Below are positions 26,302 through 55,731 of a stretch of 64,000 nucleotides of DNA, piece by piece. The position numbers and the translations under genes are program-made. Location of the stretch: assembly GCA_964344235.1 (NCBI GenBank), contig CAYFMJ010000001.1:348875-412874 (forward strand). The letters run 5' to 3'. The first letter of the stretch is position 1. The number at the start of each line of letters is the position of its first letter. Below the pieces are notes generated by a model. That model saw only the letters and a program-made list of their open reading frames with translations. It was not told the DNA's origin and made no database searches. The stretch is from an uncultured Methanosarcinales archaeon. Lineage in GTDB: Archaea > Nanobdellota > Nanobdellia > Woesearchaeales > GW2011-AR9.

Positions 26302-28428
26302 ATGGCTGATTTTGGTGATGGATATTATATGCCGATGGACCGTGGACATGCACATGATCATGGACATCATGGTTTTCCAGGGGTTTCAGGGAAAGCAACA
26401 AGTGATGTAGGGATTTCTATCGGTGATTTAGGAACAAGTATGGGTTTAGGTCCGGTGCCGAATGTGCAAACTGTTAAATCGCGTCTTCATCCCGGAGCGA
26501 AGAAGTTAGAGTTCGTATTTTTTGGTCGAGGAAAAGGTTCTGCTCAGGGACATACGCCAGGACAGTATGGGTTTAAGCAACGACAAGCATTAGTAGAGAT
26601 TGGAAGATCAAATAAAGTTGATTTTACAACGCACTCTGCTGTTGGCATTATGGGTTTAGCAGGGATGGATCAGCAAGGGAATTTCTCAAAAGCAAGTAAG
26701 CAGGATTCTCTATTGGAGTTAAAGCGAGCAGTTGAATTCGCTGCAGATGTGGGACAGGGAGGGCCCGTTGTTGTTCATACTGGGGAGTTTGACAGGCCAA
26801 TTGTTGACGCTGAGTGGAACCAACAGGAAGGCGATCCGTACAAAGGGAAGTTTACTCGGTATGCTGATGAGGAAGGAAGAACGGAGTATAGGGTTGTTGA
26901 TAGAAGAACTGGAAGACTGGTACAGTCAGCTCAGAAGAATAGAAAAGTTTCCCGGCCAGTATGGAATGTTGCTACAGAGGGAGAAGAGTATGTCGACTTT
27001 GATGGGGTGACAAAAAAGGGTGAGAAAGGAAAAAAAGTGTATTTAGATTATGAGGGAAACCGCGTACAGCCAGAGTTACGAGTTCCGAAGTTTAACAAAG
27101 ATGATCAAAAATTCGAAGTGGTGCAGCTAGGGTGGGAAGATCTTGTTGAGGAAGCAAAAGAAATGACTACCCGTGCTAAAGAGGTGTGGAAAGATTGGAA
27201 AGCTGGTAGAATTAGTAATAAAGAGTTTGAAAAATCGTATTGGGCTCGATTTAGGGATGCGAAGAGTGTTAAAGATGTTAACGTCCGGGCTGAGGAAGCG
27301 TATATTATCTCAACATTAGAAACCAATGCTGCTAGGGACAGGGGTTGGGCGTTGTATTATGGGGGGAATTTTGATGATTATATCAAAAAAATGAAGAAGT
27401 TTAAGAAAGCGCTGGCGTTTTATGAGCAATTGGAAGAAGCAACTGATGAAGAAGAGAAGTGGCAATTGAAGCGCGAAATTGGCGAGTTGCGTTTACCGAG
27501 TGGGTTGGTGCCGCCTGATTCTAAATTTCCCTCTGAAATTTTGAGAGAGCAGATTAAAGAAGTTGATCGGCAAATGAAATATTCGCGTGAATCTTCAGCA
27601 GCACAATGGGCGCAATCAGAAGAAGCGGTGGAACAGATCAGGAATATTGAGAGTGCGGAGACGTATGCAATTAAAGAAGCGTATGATGCGTATGCACAAT
27701 CAGCAATTAGTGCAATGAGACAGAGTGATGCGTTAGAGAAGAAAGGTAAGTTGAAGAAGCCGATTGCAGTTGCTCTTGAAAATTTATTCCCAGAAGCATA
27801 TGGTTCACACCCTGATGAGTTAAAAAGTTTAGTGCTTGGGAGTCGGGAGAGGATGGTTGAGTTGCTGAAACAGCAAGGAATGGCTGAAGAAGCGGCTAAG
27901 AAGAAAGCCACAGCGCACATTACTGCAACATTTGATACCGGGCATCTTAACATGTGGCGGAAGTATTGGCGAGGGGATCCAAATAAAAGTATCAAAGAAA
28001 ATGATAAAGCATTTGATAAATGGATGTTAGATAAAGTTGGAGAGCTAGCAAAGGATAAGATTATTGGCCACGTACATATTGATGATAATTATGGGTATCA
28101 TGATGATCATCTCGCTCCGGGTGAAGGGAATACGCCGATTAAAGAGATGGTGAAAGTGTTAAAAAAGAACGGGTACAAAGGAGAATTAATTGTGGAGCCC
28201 GGTGCAGATTATTATACAGATACGGGAAATGGCTTTGCGTCACTTGCGAAGACATGGAAACATTTTGATCTACCAGTCTATGGACGAGGAGGGTTGTCTG
28301 GACAAGGAGCAACGTGGGGGAATGTGCAGTATGGTTTCTTTGGACATAATCAACCTGCATATTTCGTGTTTGGAGCATATAGCCCGTCGGAAGAATGGAC
28401 GTTGTGGTCAGGAGTGCCGTTGGAGTAA
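26302..28428 (+). CDS. Xylose-isomerase-like/AP endonuclease 2 TIM-barrel metalloenzyme with large insertion
   Basis: VVHTGE, ALENL, TFDTGH, HVHIDD...HL, IVE metal motifs. Confidence 0.75.
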   Translation: MADFGDGYYMPMDRGHAHDHGHHGFPGVSGKATSDVGISIGDLGTSMGLGPVPNVQTVKSRLHPGAKKLEFVFFGRGKGSAQGHTPGQYGFKQRQALVEIGRSNKVDFTTHSAVGIMGLAGMDQQGNFSKASKQDSLLELKRAVEFAADVGQGGPVVVHTGEFDRPIVDAEWNQQEGDPYKGKFTRYADEEGRTEYRVVDRRTGRLVQSAQKNRKVSRPVWNVATEGEEYVDFDGVTKKGEKGKKVYLDYEGNRVQPELRVPKFNKDDQKFEVVQLGWEDLVEEAKEMTTRAKEVWKDWKAGRISNKEFEKSYWARFRDAKSVKDVNVRAEEAYIISTLETNAARDRGWALYYGGNFDDYIKKMKKFKKALAFYEQLEEATDEEEKWQLKREIGELRLPSGLVPPDSKFPSEILREQIKEVDRQMKYSRESSAAQWAQSEEAVEQIRNIESAETYAIKEAYDAYAQSAISAMRQSDALEKKGKLKKPIAVALENLFPEAYGSHPDELKSLVLGSRERMVELLKQQGMAEEAAKKKATAHITATFDTGHLNMWRKYWRGDPNKSIKENDKAFDKWMLDKVGELAKDKIIGHVHIDDNYGYHDDHLAPGEGNTPIKEMVKVLKKNGYKGELIVEPGADYYTDTGNGFASLAKTWKHFDLPVYGRGGLSGQGATWGNVQYGFFGHNQPAYFVFGAYSPSEEWTLWSGVPLE

Positions 28429-28469
28429 TTGTTGCTGTATTTTTTCGACGACAAAATTGAGCGGAAGGT

Positions 28470-28638
28470 GTTATGCCCTGGGGACTTTACGTCCCCACGA
28501 GGAGCGTAGCGACGAAGAGTTTTTGAACTACCGTGCATTGACACTGGCGCCGATTAACACTTACAGTTTTTAGTTTTAGTATTTCAAAGAAGGGGGAGTT
28601 CCGTTAGTTTTAGTTACACATTAAAGGGGGGACAATTT
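28470..28638. repeat. Cassette 1 left arm
   Basis: GTTATGCCC, hairpin TGGGGAC-TTTAC-GTCCCCA, GGAGC-GTA-GCGAC, then blocks TTTTTGAACTACC, ACTGGCGCC, GATTAACACT, GGGGGAGTTCC, AGGGGGGACAATTT. Confidence 0.9.
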
Positions 28639-28640
28639 AG

Positions 28641-29402
28641 TTACTTGAAAGGTTTACTTTGTTTCCAGAACCATTCAAAATAATTTCTAAAAGAATCAGC
28701 AACTTGTTGACTTGTTATTTCAAAGGCAAAGGGCATTTCACCCTGAGGGATTGCAATGAGAACCACATCTTTGTAGATCATTACCCAAGAGGGAGATTCA
28801 ATATTGAGGGGCATTCTTCTGGCTTCGCAATATTTGTAACTATTTCTGTTCTTTAAGTTTTCATTAGTTACATCAGGATGATAAAGCATTCTGCATTTGA
28901 TTTTTTCTTTTGCCAAAATCTGATGGTGCTTTTTCCAATACGCATGATGAAAGCCCGGTTGTTGCGGAGGCAACCCGTACAAAACAACCTCATCTCCCTG
29001 TTTCAATTTTTGATAGCGGTTTTCGTAAGCAGTCATTAATCCTCTAAATCCCTCATACATATTAGCCTCACTTTTTTTGGCTAACTTTTGTTTAAGGATT
29101 AACTGGGGAATCATCTCTTGGATTTTCGCTTTATTTTGTTGAATCTCTTTTTCTCTAGTTTCAACATAATCCAAGAGTGTATTTGGCGGTGCTGCTTGGT
29201 AATACTTAGTTTTTTCTTTGGTCACATAGGAAACAAGCCCTTTCTTGATTAGTTTTTCAAGAATCCTATAGATGATTGATCTATTTACTCCAGATTTTTC
29301 AAGAATAGGGCCGATTGTTGACGAACCAAGCTCTAGCAAAGCCAAGTAAGTTCTTGTTTCACCATCAGTTAATCCTGCTTCTTGAAGGGCTGAAATGTCC
29401 AT
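28641..29402 (-). CDS. TrmB-family transcriptional regulator
   Basis: GLTDGETRTYLALL...SIIYRILEKLIKKGLV wHTH plus C-terminal effector domain. Confidence 0.85.
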   Translation of the reverse strand: MDISALQEAGLTDGETRTYLALLELGSSTIGPILEKSGVNRSIIYRILEKLIKKGLVSYVTKEKTKYYQAAPPNTLLDYVETREKEIQQNKAKIQEMIPQLILKQKLAKKSEANMYEGFRGLMTAYENRYQKLKQGDEVVLYGLPPQQPGFHHAYWKKHHQILAKEKIKCRMLYHPDVTNENLKNRNSYKYCEARRMPLNIESPSWVMIYKDVVLIAIPQGEMPFAFEITSQQVADSFRNYFEWFWKQSKPFK

Positions 29403-29521
29403 GCTTTGTTTATGATTGGTTGTTTTATTTAAATCTTTCTAATTAGCATACTAGTGGTGGTATGATAAAATTATTAAAGAAAGTAGTTGCTACTGTTAAA
29501 TAAATAACTTAGGAATTAAAA

Positions 29522-29971
29522 ATGACAGAAGAAAATAATGGGCTTGACGAGAGATTACTAACACAAGTACAGGCAATTAGCAGATTAGTAATTCCAGGTG
29601 TACAAACTGAATTTTGCAGGGGGGTTCCAAAGGAAGGCAGTACTAATGAATTTAGTCCAAGCACTAACATTCTTATTGAAAACTGTCTGGGTAGAACTGT
29701 TTTTGCATCATATATCCACACTCCGTATGGTAAGAATCAATTTAGGATGTGGTTAGACAATCGTCCAAAAATGTTGGTACCCGCTAGAGATCATTACGAT
29801 CGTGGAGGCAGTTCAAGAGAAGGCAGCCACTGGTTTTTTGAAGCTACTGGACTAACCGAACCAGTACAATCAATAAGAGATCTGTTGACGGATGGTTGGG
29901 AGAAAAAAGATGAATACAGCCATAGGGCAACTGCTATTCTTTACGCAAAAGGCGGGTTTTCGGATGAATAA
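29522..29971 (+). CDS. Hypothetical protein (cassette 1 cargo)
   Basis: 149-aa ORF with AGGA SD. Confidence 0.6.
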   Translation: MTEENNGLDERLLTQVQAISRLVIPGVQTEFCRGVPKEGSTNEFSPSTNILIENCLGRTVFASYIHTPYGKNQFRMWLDNRPKMLVPARDHYDRGGSSREGSHWFFEATGLTEPVQSIRDLLTDGWEKKDEYSHRATAILYAKGGFSDE

Positions 29972-29998
29972 TCAAGATGAAACTAGGAGCTAAATAAA

Positions 29999-30541
29999 AT
30001 GGCAAAAATTGAAAGCATTGAAAGAATACTTGTTGTTGAGGATACTGAACAACATATTCAGGCAGCTAGAGAACAACTTGGTGAGTATGAACTTACAATG
30101 GTGGGAGATTTCGAAAGATTCCTCGACGCAGTGAAAGGTACTTGTTTTGACGCGCCGAATAATAGAATGAAGCGTAATTATAACTTTCCTGAAGATCCAA
30201 AATTTGATGCTGTACTTAGCGATATGAATTTTCCTATGAATGTAAAAGACTTGTACAGTGGTTACAATTCCCCTGGTGTTTTAGGATATGCAGTAGGGAT
30301 GATCTGTTCACAAGCATCAATTCCATTAGTAGGAATTGTGTCTGCAACAAACCACCATGAAGGATCTGTTGCAGGAAGTCTAATGTACTTGAAAGCAACA
30401 AGACACGCTGATAGAATTTTTCAAGTAGGAGATACACGAATAATGTATTTTGATGATGACTCTTTTGGCACAAGGGATCAACCTAAGAGATGGGATAAAG
30501 CATTAGAATGTTTAAATGCAGGAACCAGAAATATTGATTAG
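29999..30541 (+). CDS. Receiver (REC)-like hypothetical protein (cassette 1 cargo)
   Basis: RILVVED and DAVLSDMNFP resemble receiver motifs. Confidence 0.55.
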   Translation: MAKIESIERILVVEDTEQHIQAAREQLGEYELTMVGDFERFLDAVKGTCFDAPNNRMKRNYNFPEDPKFDAVLSDMNFPMNVKDLYSGYNSPGVLGYAVGMICSQASIPLVGIVSATNHHEGSVAGSLMYLKATRHADRIFQVGDTRIMYFDDDSFGTRDQPKRWDKALECLNAGTRNID

Positions 30542-30697
30542 AAATTGTCCCCCCTCTTTTTTTTGTTTTTAGGAACTCCCCCGTTAAAGTTTTAGTGTTA
30601 ATCATAGTTTTAGTTCTTAGAAAGGCGCCAGTTAAGATTGTTTAATTTAGCGTTAGCGTAGTATCCAAAATAGGTAGTTCAAAAATTGGGCATATAC
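30542..30697. repeat. Cassette 1 right arm
   Basis: AAATTGTCCCCCCT, GGAACTCCCCC, AGTGTTAATC, GGCGCCAGT, GGTAGTTCAAAAA are exact reverse complements of the left-arm blocks, in mirrored order; then TT-GGGCATATAC. Confidence 0.9.
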
Positions 30698-30700
30698 GAT

Positions 30701-30819
30701 GTTATGTGCCCCCGACTTCACGTCGGGGTGCGTAACGACCGAAGGGAGTGGAGCAAGTATTTGAGTTGCGTCATAGAAAGGGGCTTGGCATAGTTTTGGT
30801 TTTTAGAGGGGCTTAAGTT
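30701..30819. repeat. Cassette 2 left arm
   Basis: GTTATGTGC, hairpin CCCCGAC-TTCAC-GTCGGGG, ACGACC-GAA-GGGAGT, blocks TATTTGAGTTGC, GGGGCTTGGC, AGAGGGGCTTAAGTT. Confidence 0.9.
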
Positions 30820-31155
30820 TTACTTTTTGAAAATGTTTACTAAAGAATCCTGAATCTCTTTGATTTTGTTTTCTTTCAAAGTGCCAATTTTTGAAGAAAT
30901 GATTGAAACATCGGCAGTGAAAAGCTTGTTTGGTCTTACAAGACTTGATACTGTCAATTTTCCAGTTTGAAAATTTTCTGTTTCAAGAGGAACTGCATAT
31001 TCATCGCTACGAGCAGAAGCAGTTGTTATCTGTGCAAGAATTAAATCGTCACCTGTGAGATTTGCCACCACTACTGCTGGTCGTTTCCGTGATGAACTTA
31101 GATCAGAGAAAGGAAAAAGAAGAACAACGACATCTCCTCTTACAAGTGTTTCCAT
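30820..31155 (-). CDS. mazF: PemK/MazF-family toxin
   Basis: RGDVVVLLFPFSDLSSSRKRPAVVV, LAQIT, RPNKLFT. Confidence 0.9.
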   Translation of the reverse strand: METLVRGDVVVLLFPFSDLSSSRKRPAVVVANLTGDDLILAQITTASARSDEYAVPLETENFQTGKLTVSSLVRPNKLFTADVSIISSKIGTLKENKIKEIQDSLVNIFKK

Positions 31156-31388
31156 GCTTCATCCTCCTCTTTAGTAAGCCAATCTTTTGCTAAAGATTTT
31201 TCACTGGCTAAAGCTGGAAACATTTTTTCATTGAATTGTTTTAACGGTCGTAGTTCTACTTTATTATCAAAGGCTAAAATTGCTACTTTTGTTCCCTCTT
31301 TGAATCCCTCAAGTTTTCTAATGTTTTTTGGGATAGCAATTTGACCTTTCTCTGTTACAGTTGCAGTTCTCATTTCGATTAATGGCAT
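31140..31388 (-). CDS. mazE: AbrB/MazE-family antitoxin
   Basis: TVTEKGQIAIPKNIR...EGTKV AbrB fold; overlaps toxin start; AGGTGA SD. Confidence 0.85.
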   Translation of the reverse strand: MPLIEMRTATVTEKGQIAIPKNIRKLEGFKEGTKVAILAFDNKVELRPLKQFNEKMFPALASEKSLAKDWLTKEEDEAWKHL

Positions 31389-31550
31389 TTTGATCACCTA
31401 CTTAGTAATTCTTACAAGTAGGATAAGTAAGAAATATATAAATTTTTCTGTATTTATGTTGTTACTAAATGATGAATAAATCAAGGAAAGATTTATAAAT
31501 GATTAGCCGTTTCTAAGACTATAATCATTAAAATCAAGAGGTCAATAAAA

Positions 31551-31853
31551 ATGTCAGAAAATAAATTAGTATTTGCTCGTGCATATTGGATGAATAGTCC
31601 ATTTGAAGAAGGACAAGCAGGATTCTTTGTAGGAGATCCAAGTAATCCATCTAAAGGATCATATGAAGGTAACAATAATTTAAGGTTTGCTGTTGCTAAA
31701 GTTGCTGAAAGAAGTTCTGAATTATCTACAACTGTTGATACAGAATTTGAAGGTCTAGCAAGAGATGGCAAAATGACTTTATTGTTGCAACCAATTGAGC
31801 AAGATACTGCTAAATACAAAAGTGTTGATGAATTAGCACGCATGTATCTTTAA
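31551..31853 (+). CDS. Hypothetical protein (cassette 2 cargo), AT-rich
   Basis: 100-aa ORF with GAGGT SD. Confidence 0.6.
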   Translation: MSENKLVFARAYWMNSPFEEGQAGFFVGDPSNPSKGSYEGNNNLRFAVAKVAERSSELSTTVDTEFEGLARDGKMTLLLQPIEQDTAKYKSVDELARMYL

Positions 31854-31870
31854 AATTATTTTTTCTTTTT

Positions 31871-32012
31871 AACTTAAGCCCCTCTTTTTCTTTTTACATT
31901 TTAGTTTTTAACATAGAGCCAAGCCCCATCAATAATAGAATTTCTGCATTCAGTTTATAGTCAGTAAACAGAAGCAGAGTAAACATCAAGCAACTCAAAT
32001 ATTGCACATAAC
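31871..32012. repeat. Cassette 2 right arm
   Basis: AACTTAAGCCCCTCT, GCCAAGCCCC, GCAACTCAAATA are exact reverse complements of the left arm; then TT-GCACATAAC. Confidence 0.9.
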
Positions 32013-32015
32013 GAT

Positions 32016-32097
32016 GTTATGTTGTGGGAGGTTCATCCTCCCAGCCGAGCGTTAGCGAGGAAGTTTAGAAATCAGGAACAAGCTTTACCCCCGCCAT
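32016..32097. repeat. Cassette 3 left arm
   Basis: GTTATGTTG, hairpin TGGGAGG-TTCAT-CCTCCCA, CCGAGC-GTTA-GCGAGG, blocks TTTAGAAATCAGGAA, TTACCCCCGCCAT. Confidence 0.85.
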
Positions 32098-32175
32098 TGT
32101 AGAATTTCACTGCCATACTCATCTTTTACTATTTTTTAGTAATATTTTTAAAGAAAGAGGTTTCTCATACTATTT

Positions 32176-32694
32176 ATGCAACAATTACTAACATACAGAG
32201 AATTTCCATTTGATCATTCATTATTTTTGGATAAAGGTATTAATGCAGGAGATTTGCATGTTACTCTTTATGATGAAATGGGTTGTACTCAAGATGGTGA
32301 CCAAAAGTTAAGTGAAGTAAATAGAAGAGTTCATAATGCTGCTGTAAGAAGTTTAGTTGGTAAATTTGCTGGTGATTTAGGACAAAGAGTTTCTTTTGGT
32401 GTTTCTAGATTTTTAAAAAAAAGTAAACGTGCTAGTCCTGATTATTCATTAAGTGAAGTTGCAGATGTTCTTGTTGGAGCAGGAGCGTATGAATCAAGAG
32501 AAGCAGCATTAGAACATTTACCTGAATTTTTAGGAACCTCTTTAAGGACTGATGGAAAACGAAAATATGCTAACTCAATGTGGACGGGAGTACAAACTAG
32601 TTTAGATATTGAAGTAAAAGATGAGTGGCATTGGTTTGGAAGAATAGATTCTGATAGTGGTGAACAGAAGGTATATTTACATAAGCAAAAATAA
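32176..32694 (+). CDS. Hypothetical protein (cassette 3 cargo), AT-rich
   Basis: 172-aa ORF. Confidence 0.6.
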   Translation: MQQLLTYREFPFDHSLFLDKGINAGDLHVTLYDEMGCTQDGDQKLSEVNRRVHNAAVRSLVGKFAGDLGQRVSFGVSRFLKKSKRASPDYSLSEVADVLVGAGAYESREAALEHLPEFLGTSLRTDGKRKYANSMWTGVQTSLDIEVKDEWHWFGRIDSDSGEQKVYLHKQK

Positions 32695-32698
32695 TTTT

Positions 32699-32755
32699 AT
32701 GGTGGGGGTTATTCAAGTTCTACGTCCTAATTCCTGATCTCTAAATTCAACATAC
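32699..32755. repeat. Cassette 3 right arm
   Basis: ATGGTGGGGGTTA and TTCCTGATCTCTAAA are near-exact reverse complements of the left arm; then TT-CAACATAC. Confidence 0.8.
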
Positions 32756-32935
32756 GGACTACTTAAGTGCACTTTGGGCTTAAGTAGTGAAATTCTTTGA
32801 ATTCAAAGCCTCTACTCAATCCCATAACGCAAAAAACTGTTACTACTTTGCATGGAAATGTCTCACTACCCACTCGACAACCACGGGTAGAGTATATAAA
32901 CGAGTTTCTTCACTAAGAATGTCGAGGTGATAGAA

Positions 32936-36894: not shown

Positions 36895-37013
36895 AGCCCC
36901 GGGCGAGAGTTGAACTCGCGACCTCCTGATATCTTACCATGCTTGTGCTCTATTGAAAACATAGCAGATAGATGGCTACAAGTCAGGTGCTATAGCCACT
37001 AAGCCACCGGGGC
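36895..37013 (-). tRNA. tRNA-Thr(TGT) with canonical 46-nt intron at 37/38 (36931-36976)
   Basis: GCCCCGG/CCGGGGC acceptor, CCTGA-CTTGTA|A-TCAGG; BHB with CTTG/TAAG helix and CCAT/ATGG. Confidence 0.92.
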
Positions 37014-53448: not shown

Positions 53449-54195
53449 ATGGCAAATATTCGAGCAGTTAAACAGAAAGGGAGAAAACTTCCGAATGTCT
53501 TTAGTAAGAAACAATTGGTTGATCTCTTTCTTACAATCCGGGAAACAGAAATCTTTGTCGCTGCATTACTGGCGTTGTTCTGTGGTTTTCGCATTAGTGA
53601 AATATGCAAGCTAAGAAAAGATGACGTTGATTTGGATTCAGAGAGGATTAAAGTTGTACAGGGAAAGGGACATAAAGATCGCTATGTAATGGTGCCATCA
53701 AAACTGGTTCCATTTTTGAAACAATGGTTCCGCGTTCACCCAGATACTCCCTATGTCATCCCAGCACCGTACAAGGGACATTATAATGTTGGTTCGTTCC
53801 AAGCAAAATTTAGGAAATACCTTAAAGAAGCAGGTTTGTCCATGAAAGTTGGTCAGTCATCAACTGGGCTGCCTATTTATGCCTACAAATTTCATACATT
53901 ACGTCATACATATGCAACATTATTGTTAGAGAGAGGTGTTGATTTACATTATATCCAACGTGCACTCGGTCATTCTGACCTTCATACAACCCAAATTTAC
54001 GCGTATATTGGACAGAAAGATCTCCACAATAAGATTAATGCAGCGTTTGGTTCTGGACGTTCAAAACAGCGTCAAGCGCACAATACAACGGATCCAATTC
54101 AGTTGTTACAACTTAAATTAGCTGAGGGGGATATTGGCAAGAAAGAATACTTAGATAAACTGGACTTATTACAGCAAAGTTCAAGTTTGGCCTAA
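53449..54195 (+). CDS. Tyrosine recombinase, catalytic domain only, with C-terminal SHOCT-like helices
   Basis: GFRISE (R), GKGHK (K), HTLRH, LGH, TTQIY; tail DPIQLLQLKLAEGDIGKKEY. Confidence 0.9.
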   Translation: MANIRAVKQKGRKLPNVFSKKQLVDLFLTIRETEIFVAALLALFCGFRISEICKLRKDDVDLDSERIKVVQGKGHKDRYVMVPSKLVPFLKQWFRVHPDTPYVIPAPYKGHYNVGSFQAKFRKYLKEAGLSMKVGQSSTGLPIYAYKFHTLRHTYATLLLERGVDLHYIQRALGHSDLHTTQIYAYIGQKDLHNKINAAFGSGRSKQRQAHNTTDPIQLLQLKLAEGDIGKKEYLDKLDLLQQSSSLA

Positions 54196-54767: not shown

Positions 54768-55218
54768 AGAATACACTCCAGACCAGATTTATGATAAGTT
54801 AGTACGTGAAGGAGCATACCACGAGGCGCATCTTGATAAAGATGAAGTGAGAAAAGTTCTTACAATGACTATAGAAGATTACACCTTTGGTAAAGAAATT
54901 AGGAGATCATCCAATCCAAGTTGGCGCGTCGTATTTAATGTTCATTATGACGTATTCCGTGAACTCTGTGACCAATTAATACGTTTTCACAAGCAAAAAA
55001 TAAGTAACCATCAAGGGTTATTTGCATTTATTATACTCAATTTTAACGATCTTGCTTTAGATTGGGATTTTCTTGAGAAAATCAGGACACTCAGGAACAA
55101 AAATAAGTATGAAGGTCTTGATATTAGTAAAAAAATGTGGCAACAAGTCGAATTACAATTTGATTTGTATATCTCCGCAATTCGTAAAGAGATTGAGGAA
55201 GGATTAAACGCTCTCTGA
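54760..55218 (+). CDS. HEPN-domain protein (putative toxin)
   Basis: Downstream of MNT; RNKNKY motif; NHQGLF. Confidence 0.65.
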   Translation: MPREYTPDQIYDKLVREGAYHEAHLDKDEVRKVLTMTIEDYTFGKEIRRSSNPSWRVVFNVHYDVFRELCDQLIRFHKQKISNHQGLFAFIILNFNDLALDWDFLEKIRTLRNKNKYEGLDISKKMWQQVELQFDLYISAIRKEIEEGLNAL

Positions 55219-55731
55219 TGTCGCCCACACTCGCTTAAAATCTTCCAGGACTCTCTGCCCTGAATAATTAAGATAAATATCTGTCGTTTGGATACTTGAA
55301 TGCCCTAAAATTCCCTGTAATGCACGGAGATTCCCTCCTCGATGTAAATACGTGACTGCGAATGTATGCCGTAGCACATGAGGCGTTACTTTCTTCCTAA
55401 TTCCTGCCCTTTCAGCAACTCGTTTCACGATTTGCTGTGCCCAACGAGATGTCATTTTTATTCTATCCCTACGGTGGAAATATGATTGAAGATACTTCCT
55501 TGCACAATTACTCATTGGGATCACGCGTCGTTTGTTTCCTTTTCCCCATGTGGTAATACAATCTCTCTGCCAACTAATTTGGTCAACAGAAAGAGTAGTT
55601 AATTCACTCACTCTCATCCCTGTTTCCAGAAGGACATTGATAACTAACTGTTCGCAAAAGGTTTTACATGCCCTTCGCAAAAGCACTATTTCATTTTCTT
55701 CCAATGGTTCTCGTTTGTATGTAAAAGCCAT
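55204..55731 (-). CDS. Minimal tyrosine recombinase (175 aa, catalytic domain only)
   Basis: TGMRVSE, GKGNK, HVLRH, LGH, TTDIY. Confidence 0.9.
   Translation of the reverse strand: MAFTYKREPLEENEIVLLRRACKTFCEQLVINVLLETGMRVSELTTLSVDQISWQRDCITTWGKGNKRRVIPMSNCARKYLQSYFHRRDRIKMTSRWAQQIVKRVAERAGIRKKVTPHVLRHTFAVTYLHRGGNLRALQGILGHSSIQTTDIYLNYSGQRVLEDFKRVWATSESV

Follow-up and report, generated by a model that had tools for sequence, protein, structure and literature searches.

Integrons serve as the model both for recombination at structured single-stranded sites and for the capture of genes; how they arose from Xer-like enzymes is not settled. In their attC sites, extrahelical bases set the strand and the orientation. 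Folded or dif-like sites are also used by elements that exploit Xer enzymes: CTX phage has a folded single-stranded attP that is used by XerCD, and gene modules on Acinetobacter plasmids are bounded by dif-like sites (pdif). By the standard IntI and attC criteria, archaeal integrons were found in 75 of 6718 genomes, and a few Woesearchaeales carried 4–5 attCs and no IntI (Ghaly et al., 2022; PMC9668308), which may or may not be the system described here. The dif sites of archaea and bacteria have 11-nt arms and a 6-nt spacer (PMC8371274). In this study, we analyzed a stretch of 64,000 nucleotides (hereafter the window; assembly GCA_964344235.1, contig CAYFMJ010000001.1, positions 348,875 to 412,874) from an archaeon titled uncultured Methanosarcinales and placed by GTDB in the Woesearchaeales. 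The window holds an array of three gene cassettes, each of which begins with a module of two hairpins. Considering the results below, we think that the module is probably the structured, polarity-giving, attC-like part of a cassette-borne recombination site, in an integron-like platform of one family of Woesearchaeota.

The original prediction for this DNA had described three modules that face the same way and are probably acted on as single-stranded DNA. Direct reading of positions 28200-32400 bore out the modules, their hairpins and their coordinates, and all of them lie on the + strand, giving a polar array. In each, a 9-nt terminus (GTTATGNNN, starting at 28470, 30701 and 32016) is followed without gaps by a 7-bp stem with a TTYAY loop (hairpin 1, HP1) and then by a GNA/GNNA-loop hairpin with tandem G·A pairs (hairpin 2, HP2). 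The HP2 sequences of modules 1, 2 and 3 are GGAGC-GTA-GCGAC, (TGC..)ACGACC-GAA-GGGAGT(..GCA) and CCGAGC-GTTA-GCGAGG. Each combines two G-C pairs and G·A pairs with a loop of GTA, GAA or GTTA, and that of cassette 2 has an outer TGC/GCA stem in addition. A pattern scan with the exact core and loop returned these three sites and no others in the window. When the whole source assembly was scanned (G000; 1.19 Mb, 37 contigs, 96% complete), nine perfect copies of the module were found on contigs C1, C3, C9 and C26, together with further, more diverged copies on contigs C19 and C22.

Comparison of copies from many genomes indicated what is conserved in the hairpins. In an alignment of 104 distinct copies, 99.0% of the HP1 cells were standard pairs, falling to 38–57% when the partner was slid, and double changes were present at all seven pairs. 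This alignment had been fitted to a covariance model, and the count was therefore repeated on copies picked without regard to pairing, from the sequence of core and loop. Of the 99 archaeal copies in this set, 71 paired 7/7 and 17 paired 6/7, with 45 different 5' stems among them, while chance hits in bacterial genomes mostly had 0–2 of the 7 pairs. HP2 lay directly 3' of HP1 in 68 of 94 scored copies and typically comprised 4–5 Watson-Crick pairs with a GTA, GAA, GCA or GTTA loop; exactly two G·A pairs were present in 53 of 98 copies, and a conserved AGT(T) followed on the 3' side. With presence defined as a hairpin score of at least four Watson-Crick-pair equivalents, HP2 was found in 80% of the 98 copies and in 16% of shuffles. 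Most copies also had an extra covarying outer stem (TGC/GCA, TCC/GGA, TCG/CGA, TCAACC/GGTTGA and others), which the original prediction had not mentioned. HP2 is a structure of the + strand, because on the opposite strand its G·A pairs turn into T·C and its GNA loops into TNC. Chance is excluded as the source of the two hairpins, and pairing is under selection in both. The claim that structure is selected over sequence therefore held, and the additional copies (104 for HP1 and 98–99 in the other counts) mostly keep the 7-bp/TTYAY stem-loop and the G·A hairpin.

The hairpins are one part of a larger cassette design. The three cassettes of the window (28470-30697, 30701-32012 and 32016-32755; Table 1) have genes on both strands and, inside their termini, private blockwise inverted arms. 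Their layout is R'(GTTAWGNNN)-HP1-HP2-AGT-left arm-cargo-right arm-ATT-R''(NNNCWTAAC), and they are joined head to tail through a conserved GAT, which gives the junction NNNCWTAAC-GAT-GTTAWGNNN. Modules were found only at cassette boundaries, so the motif is tied to cassette ends, as the original prediction had it, and is not an unlinked REP (repetitive extragenic palindrome) family. In 66 cassettes parsed from many genera, nearly all junctions were GAT and the private 9-nt termini were perfectly complementary in 40. The left and right arms of a cassette were complementary to each other in 55 of 62 cases, and arms facing across a junction were not. The right arm ended in ATT directly 5' of R'' in 40 of 40 cassettes and the left arm began with xGT after HP2, which gives the closing helix a conserved G·T at its base. 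Counted exactly from these anchors, at least five consecutive private Watson-Crick pairs were present in 37 of 59 cassettes, compared with 5 of 463 mismatched controls, and most of those 37 closing helices had 11–14 pairs.

Simulated circle junctions of cassettes 1 and 2, folded with DNA parameters, formed a four-way junction in which the closing stem, the R''-GAT-R' hairpin, HP1 and HP2 meet with almost no linkers. The four-way junction had been proposed from the window alone; it now has comparative support in all four helices, each of which shows private complementarity. Because two of these helices pair sequences 1–3 kb apart on the chromosome, the junction can exist only in an excised or single-stranded cassette.

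An RNA element was considered as another explanation of the paired strand, namely a structure at the 5' or 3' end of a transcript (for processing, stability or termination) or a small RNA that lies only incidentally at the cassette boundary. Several features would suit a transcript: the strand-specificity of the module, the tandem G·A pairs of HP2 together with one or more G·T(U) pairs in 27 of 98 copies, and a polar T-rich motif (TAGTTTT) that both arms carry on the same strand. We nevertheless consider this explanation decidedly improbable. Wobble pairs made up only about 6 of 722 HP1 cells in the 104-copy alignment, and G·T and A·C mismatches numbered 13 and 9, unlike RNA helices; being rare and unbiased, wobble in HP1 looks like pairing at the level of DNA. 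In all copies, no spacer separates the module from its 9-nt DNA terminus, and two of the four helices are formed by sequences brought together only in the excised circle. Cargo genes lie on both strands, and an Rfam search of the array at gathering thresholds matched no family. A reading of the site as tRNA-like, or as an att site within a tRNA, was rejected, the array region being without a tRNA.

The junction could also belong to a system of the Xer/dif type that acts on duplex DNA only. The 21-bp junction would then be the core site, and HP1, HP2 and the arms would be accessory-protein sites or by-products that never fold. In favor of this, the junction is a conventional inverted pair of half-sites that resembles the inner arms of dif, those of the E. 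coli dif sequence included, and mismatches in HP1 and the arms show no strand bias. Moreover, XerA recombines duplex dif in vitro without partners (PMC2958812). A protein that reads the duplex, however, would conserve sequence; instead, 45 or more different HP1 stems pair and only the loop is kept. The private complementarity of the termini and the closing helix would have no role, and the G·A/GNA design of HP2 is meaningful only in a folded single strand. We hold the duplex-only system to be rather unlikely.

A candidate enzyme for cassette movement was sought among the recombinases of the source genome, which gave 11 tyrosine-recombinase matches. One of these genes lies 3.6 kb downstream of the array on contig C3, on the same strand. 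Its product is XerA-like, with 219 bits on the archaeal XerA model NF040815 (cut-off 220), and the best matches to it among solved structures are XerA 4A8E and 5HXY. Alignments to solved XerA and IntI4 include the active-site motifs AGLRVSEL, HxLRHSFATH, LGH and IYTH, an assignment made at the level of motifs and not residue by residue. Residues 175-189 of the C3 protein face residues 182-238 of IntI4 (VchIntIA, 2A3V), about 40 residues fewer, and the protein reached 195 bits on TIGR02249 (cut-off 265). Since the IntI-specific insertion is absent, the array-linked enzyme is not an IntI in the strict sense.

The recombinases of the family were grouped by identity to the C3 protein into group A (46–62%) and group B (33–44%). 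Twenty group-A genes, in 19 genomes, share contig and strand with a module that lies 1.3–9 kb upstream of them, and relaxed searches added three more (about 23 in total), one of which rests on weak matches. For many other group-A genes, the contig begins at most 1.5 kb away, on the side expected to hold the array. No group-B gene was found within 40 kb of a module. Group B scored 252–263 bits on the XerA model and group A 210–240 bits; the two groups form separate clades, and group A, a clade with 99/100 support, is sister to the XerA core. Module presence set against group-A gene presence (43/19/20/32) gave an odds ratio of 3.6 (p = 0.0013), which is only indicative, because relatives are not independent and metagenome-assembled genomes (MAGs) are fragmented. 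The source genome has a second group-A gene (C15:212-1063; L002), which is 52% identical to the C3 gene, begins 211 nt from the contig start and has the conserved upstream motif, so that C15 is likely a second platform whose array is unassembled.

Of the enzymes named in the original prediction, the tyrosine-recombinase class thus stood, as a XerA-paralogue clade in fixed orientation and not as a strict IntI, and a Y1/RAYT transposase fell away, no such gene being found in the 96% complete source genome. The latter bears on a further explanation, in which the hairpins are a REP/BIME-like or IS200/IS605-like family handled by an HUH nuclease (Y1/RAYT or Rep). GNA loops and covarying hairpins are typical features of HUH substrates, and the TTTAC and TTCAC loops loosely recall cleavage sites of the TTAC type. 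Searching the 96% complete source genome for Y1_Tnp (PF01797) gave no match, while controls responded in 6 of 14 genomes; a search for Viral_Rep was also empty, but its positive controls were silent, so it is uninformative. The modules are not dispersed, being confined to cassette boundaries in tyrosine-recombinase-linked arrays. An HUH-handled family is therefore, in our judgment, hardly credible.

Other recombinase genes were also seen. Two genes of the window, at 53449-54195 (+) and 55204-55731 (-), about 21 kb from the array, encode tyrosine recombinases of other families (248 and 175 aa), possibly as the mark of a further integrated element. A serine recombinase gene (about 214 aa) is present in three near-identical copies (C5:3973-4395, C19:1092-1514 and C28:769-1191), probably of an insertion sequence. 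They were rejected as array enzymes, because their linkage is inconsistent, with one copy near an array on the small cassette-bearing contig C19.

Sequence next to the recombinase gene pointed to a putative docking site. On contig C3, a conserved block sits between the last cassette and the start codon of the recombinase. The first 63 nt of the orphan block that follows the window array (Table 1) are identical to the sequence directly upstream of the C3 gene, and its 3' part, CCACTNGACAACNACGGNTAG with a TATA-like box, is conserved upstream of group-A genes at seven other loci in six genomes. After the last R'' of G010 and of G066 comes TCK-TTATAT, with neither HP1 nor HP2. Since the docking site has no hairpins, these belong to the cassettes and the site of the platform is plain, which parallels attC and attI. 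The window array resembles an integrase-less cluster, one that would depend on the recombinases of C3 or C15. Comparison of the docking-block sequence with metagenome contigs gave no match. As a separate observation, four tandem R''-like half-sites (AAACTTAAC, CACTTAAC, ATCTTAAC and AACTTAAAC) lie at about 1770-1800 of L049 in G010, about 220 nt upstream of the start codon of the linked recombinase, and recall the accessory integrase-binding repeats of attI.

The module is specific to one archaeal family. A covariance model built from 12 copies found it in 62 of 114 genomes, belonging to 41 of 58 genera, in the GTDB family of the source (Woesearchaeota), with 11–15 modules in the largest arrays, and in only 1 of 149 genomes of the same order outside the family. 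An exact-pattern scan of 185,579 species genomes gave multi-hit loci only in MAGs titled Woesearchaeota, Nanoarchaeota or 'uncultured Methanosarcinales', the last of which we take to be mislabelled, and on one Saccharibacteria-titled contig. That contig holds two copies, both pairing 7/7, and is presumably mis-binned. The scan also gave one single hit on a Pacearchaeota-titled contig, and single bacterial hits in the number expected by chance.

Cassettes were shown to be discrete units common to different genera. Whole-cassette homologues were found across genera, with similarity that stops at the cassette ends (for example, 91.7% over 1026 of 1029 nt, and 99.9% over 789 nt), and the MazEF cassette of the window has an 85% relative in G004. 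In the source MAG, three different units follow one and the same 130-nt upstream unit, and each join falls exactly at the junction. A non-coding unit of about 130 nt with inverted ends of its own (GCTAAATT...AATTTAGC), which has three different neighbours, occurs between cassettes on C9 (about 1821-1960) and on C26 (two copies) (L014 and L015), and C26 and C19 also have short gene-less units with ends of the ATTATGCG type.

From the observed anatomy, the selection for pairing and the linkage to a recombinase clade, we infer a plausible model for cassette movement. The group-A recombinase would recombine two junctions and release the cassette as a circle, and would integrate cassettes at the docking site beside its own gene, the presumed counterpart of attI. 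Circularization would bring together R'' and R' of one cassette, HP1, HP2 and the closing arm helix in a four-way junction that leaves hardly any linker unpaired. This folded form, either single-stranded DNA or an extruded cruciform, would be read by the recombinase or by a partner, with the choice of strand and orientation made by the conserved TTYAY loop, by HP2 as a strand-specific G·A/GNA hairpin and by the conserved G·T.

Several results weigh against the model. Mismatches showed no significant strand bias, either in HP1 (13 G·T and 9 A·C in 973 cells) or in the arms (13 G·T and 6 A·C), and the G·T versus A·C asymmetry was accordingly rejected as an indicator of the folded strand; HP2 and the junction-side G·T are therefore the main support for the single-strand reading. 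Among homologous cassette pairs, the arms had 1 double and 24 single changes, the divergence being too small to reveal compensatory change. The centre between AAC and GTT is 3 nt, shorter than the 6–8-bp overlap usual for tyrosine recombinases, and the crossover must lie within TAAC-GAT-GTTA, because each cassette keeps its own W position and private triplets. There is no recombinase gene within 20 kb of the window array, nor after its orphan block, and for the group-A gene G086:C3 no module could be detected in the 12 kb upstream. No excised cassette circle was found among metagenome contigs, the junction pattern had no match among viral contigs, and no viral or plasmid carrier was found. The sole circular-looking contig, L245, was rejected because it carries only a chance match inside an open reading frame (ORF).

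Table 1. Features of the cassette array in the window (positions in the window; terminus and HP1 sequences of the modules by direct reading)
Feature	Position	Strand	Description
Array left boundary	28467-28478	+	GGT, then 9-nt left terminus R' of cassette 1, GTTATGCCC
Module 1, terminus	28470-28478	+	GTTATGCCC
Cassette 1 (module 1), HP1	28479-28497	+	TGGGGAC-TTTAC-GTCCCCA; 7-bp stem, TTTAC loop
Cassette 1, HP2	28498-28520	+	GGAGC-GTA-GCGAC core, G·A pairs; conserved AGT at end
Cassette 1, left arm	28521-28640	+	Five private blocks complementary to 30542-30684; first block, TTTTGAACTACC, directly 3' of AGT
Cassette 1, cargo	28641-30541	.	TrmB-family regulator 28641-29402 (-); ORFs 29522-29971 (+) and 29999-30541 (+)
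Cassette 1, right arm	30542-30687	+	Ends in ATT (30685-30687)
Cassette 1, R''	30688-30697	+	GGGCATATAC, one extra T; junction GAT at 30698-30700
Cassette 2, module (module 2)	30701-30758	+	R' GTTATGTGC 30701-30709; HP1 CCCCGAC-TTCAC-GTCGGGG 30710-30728; HP2 30729-30755, GAA loop; then AGT
Cassette 2, left arm	30759-30830
Cassette 2, cargo	30820-31155	-	MazF/PemK
Cassette 2, cargo	31140-31397	-	MazE/AbrB
Cassette 2, cargo	31551-31853	+	100-aa ORF
Cassette 2, right arm	31854-32015	+	Perfect R'' GCACATAAC 32004-32012; junction GAT 32013-32015
Cassette 3, module (module 3)	32016-32064	+	R' GTTATGTTG 32016-32024; HP1 TGGGAGG-TTCAT-CCTCCCA 32025-32043; HP2 CCGAGC-GTTA-GCGAGG; then AGT
Cassette 3, left arm	32065-32110
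Cassette 3, cargo	32176-32694	+	172-aa ORF
Cassette 3, right arm	32700-32747		Ends in ATT
Cassette 3, R''	32748-32755		CAACATAC
Array end hairpin	32759-32787	+	9-bp stem, contains CTTAAG
Orphan upstream block	32785-32902	+	~118 nt; overlaps last three bases of the 32759-32787 hairpin

The GGT at the left boundary is likewise present 5' of the first module in the array of contig C3. Family searches with the two ORFs of cassette 1 and with the 172-aa ORF of cassette 3 gave no match. The T-rich polar motif of the arms (TTTAGTTTT / TAGTTTTTA; for example, 28570-28615 and 30600-30620) was seen on the same strand in both arms of most cassettes, almost never as its reverse complement and rarely in cargo, and it may be a terminator or a host-factor site. 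Another motif, TTAGCGT, was seen only in right arms, in 11 of 59 cassettes. Elsewhere in the window, Rfam gave a 119-nt tRNA match at 36895-37013 (-) (56.6 bits), unreported by the bacterial mode of ARAGORN, which presumably carries an intron, consistent with an archaeal genome; this match and other genes of the window, such as NFACT, point to an archaeal chromosome. The GC skew of contig C1 was positive over all 413 kb without a change of sign, so it is of no use for placing the origin or terminus or the direction of replication.

Full-text literature searches found no description of this system, and what is new is the two-hairpin module of this family, the statistics of its covariation and the finding that all four helices are anchored. 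Hairpins of the REP/BIME-RAYT and IS200/IS605 kinds are likewise short, GC-rich and conserved in shape, with GNA-type loops that are stable in single-stranded DNA; the present elements differ in having no HUH Y1 gene match, in being confined to cassette boundaries and in their link to a tyrosine recombinase. In Xer/dif dimer resolution there is a single dif per chromosome, whereas many sites per genome are present here; the half-sites here are 9-nt arms around a 3-nt centre instead of 11+6+11 (PMC8371274), and the array enzyme is a dedicated paralogue, not the canonical XerA. Elements that exploit Xer (integrative mobile elements, IMEX, such as CTX phage, and the pdif modules of Acinetobacter plasmids) share with the present system a Xer-family enzyme, dif-like core sites and tandem build-up at one locus. 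However, pdif sites alternate, whereas the junctions and modules of an array here are all direct, and the cassettes lack the replication and morphogenesis genes of IMEX phages.

The closest likeness is to integrons. In both, tandem promiscuous cargo cassettes, toxin-antitoxin pairs included, lie beside a Xer-related tyrosine recombinase, the left terminus of a cassette pairs with its own right terminus (here in 40 of 66), and structure is kept over sequence. The termini GTTAWGY/RCWTAAC are close to the attC R-box GTTRRRY/RYYYAAC, of which the A variant of GTTAWGY fits and the commoner T variant breaks one position. The junction is similar to a single 'simple site' of the 59-base element, hairpins are missing from the docking site next to the recombinase, as they are from attI, and the site design is lineage-specific, as in sedentary chromosomal integrons. 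In contrast, the recombinase here has no IntI-specific insertion (between patches II and III) and groups with XerA, and its gene is downstream of the array and co-directional (about 23 group-A genes), with only the orphan upstream block at the window array. There is no contiguous 57–141-nt attC (R''-L''-variable region-L'-R'); only 21 nt (R''-GAT-R') lie between cassettes, the R-type half-sites are 3 nt apart, and the paired arms flank the cargo, which takes the place of the attC variable region. Two extra hairpins turn the site into a four-way junction, and the cassettes are often multi-gene, with genes on both strands.

The system may be instructive for how a chromosome-dimer resolvase became a gene-capture machine, since it combines a Xer-type enzyme, half-sites like those of dif and the attC R-box, and a cassette-borne site with covariation behind the shape of its four helices. 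Furthermore, tiny DPANN archaea likely exchange genes by this route, given cassettes common to genera at up to 99.9% identity, and the system offers a defined substrate for studying how a tyrosine recombinase reads branched DNA. Considering all the above comparisons, we see an even chance that the Woesearchaeota have integrons of a second kind, either sister to the bacterial kind or independent of it, in which a XerA paralogue captures and excises the cassettes and the attC equivalent is a four-way junction with the cargo inside the hairpin and not beside it; such a junction would form only with the cassette excised or single-stranded. The system is integron-like in its working yet fails the tests that define an integron, and it is neither a dif site nor a pdif array.

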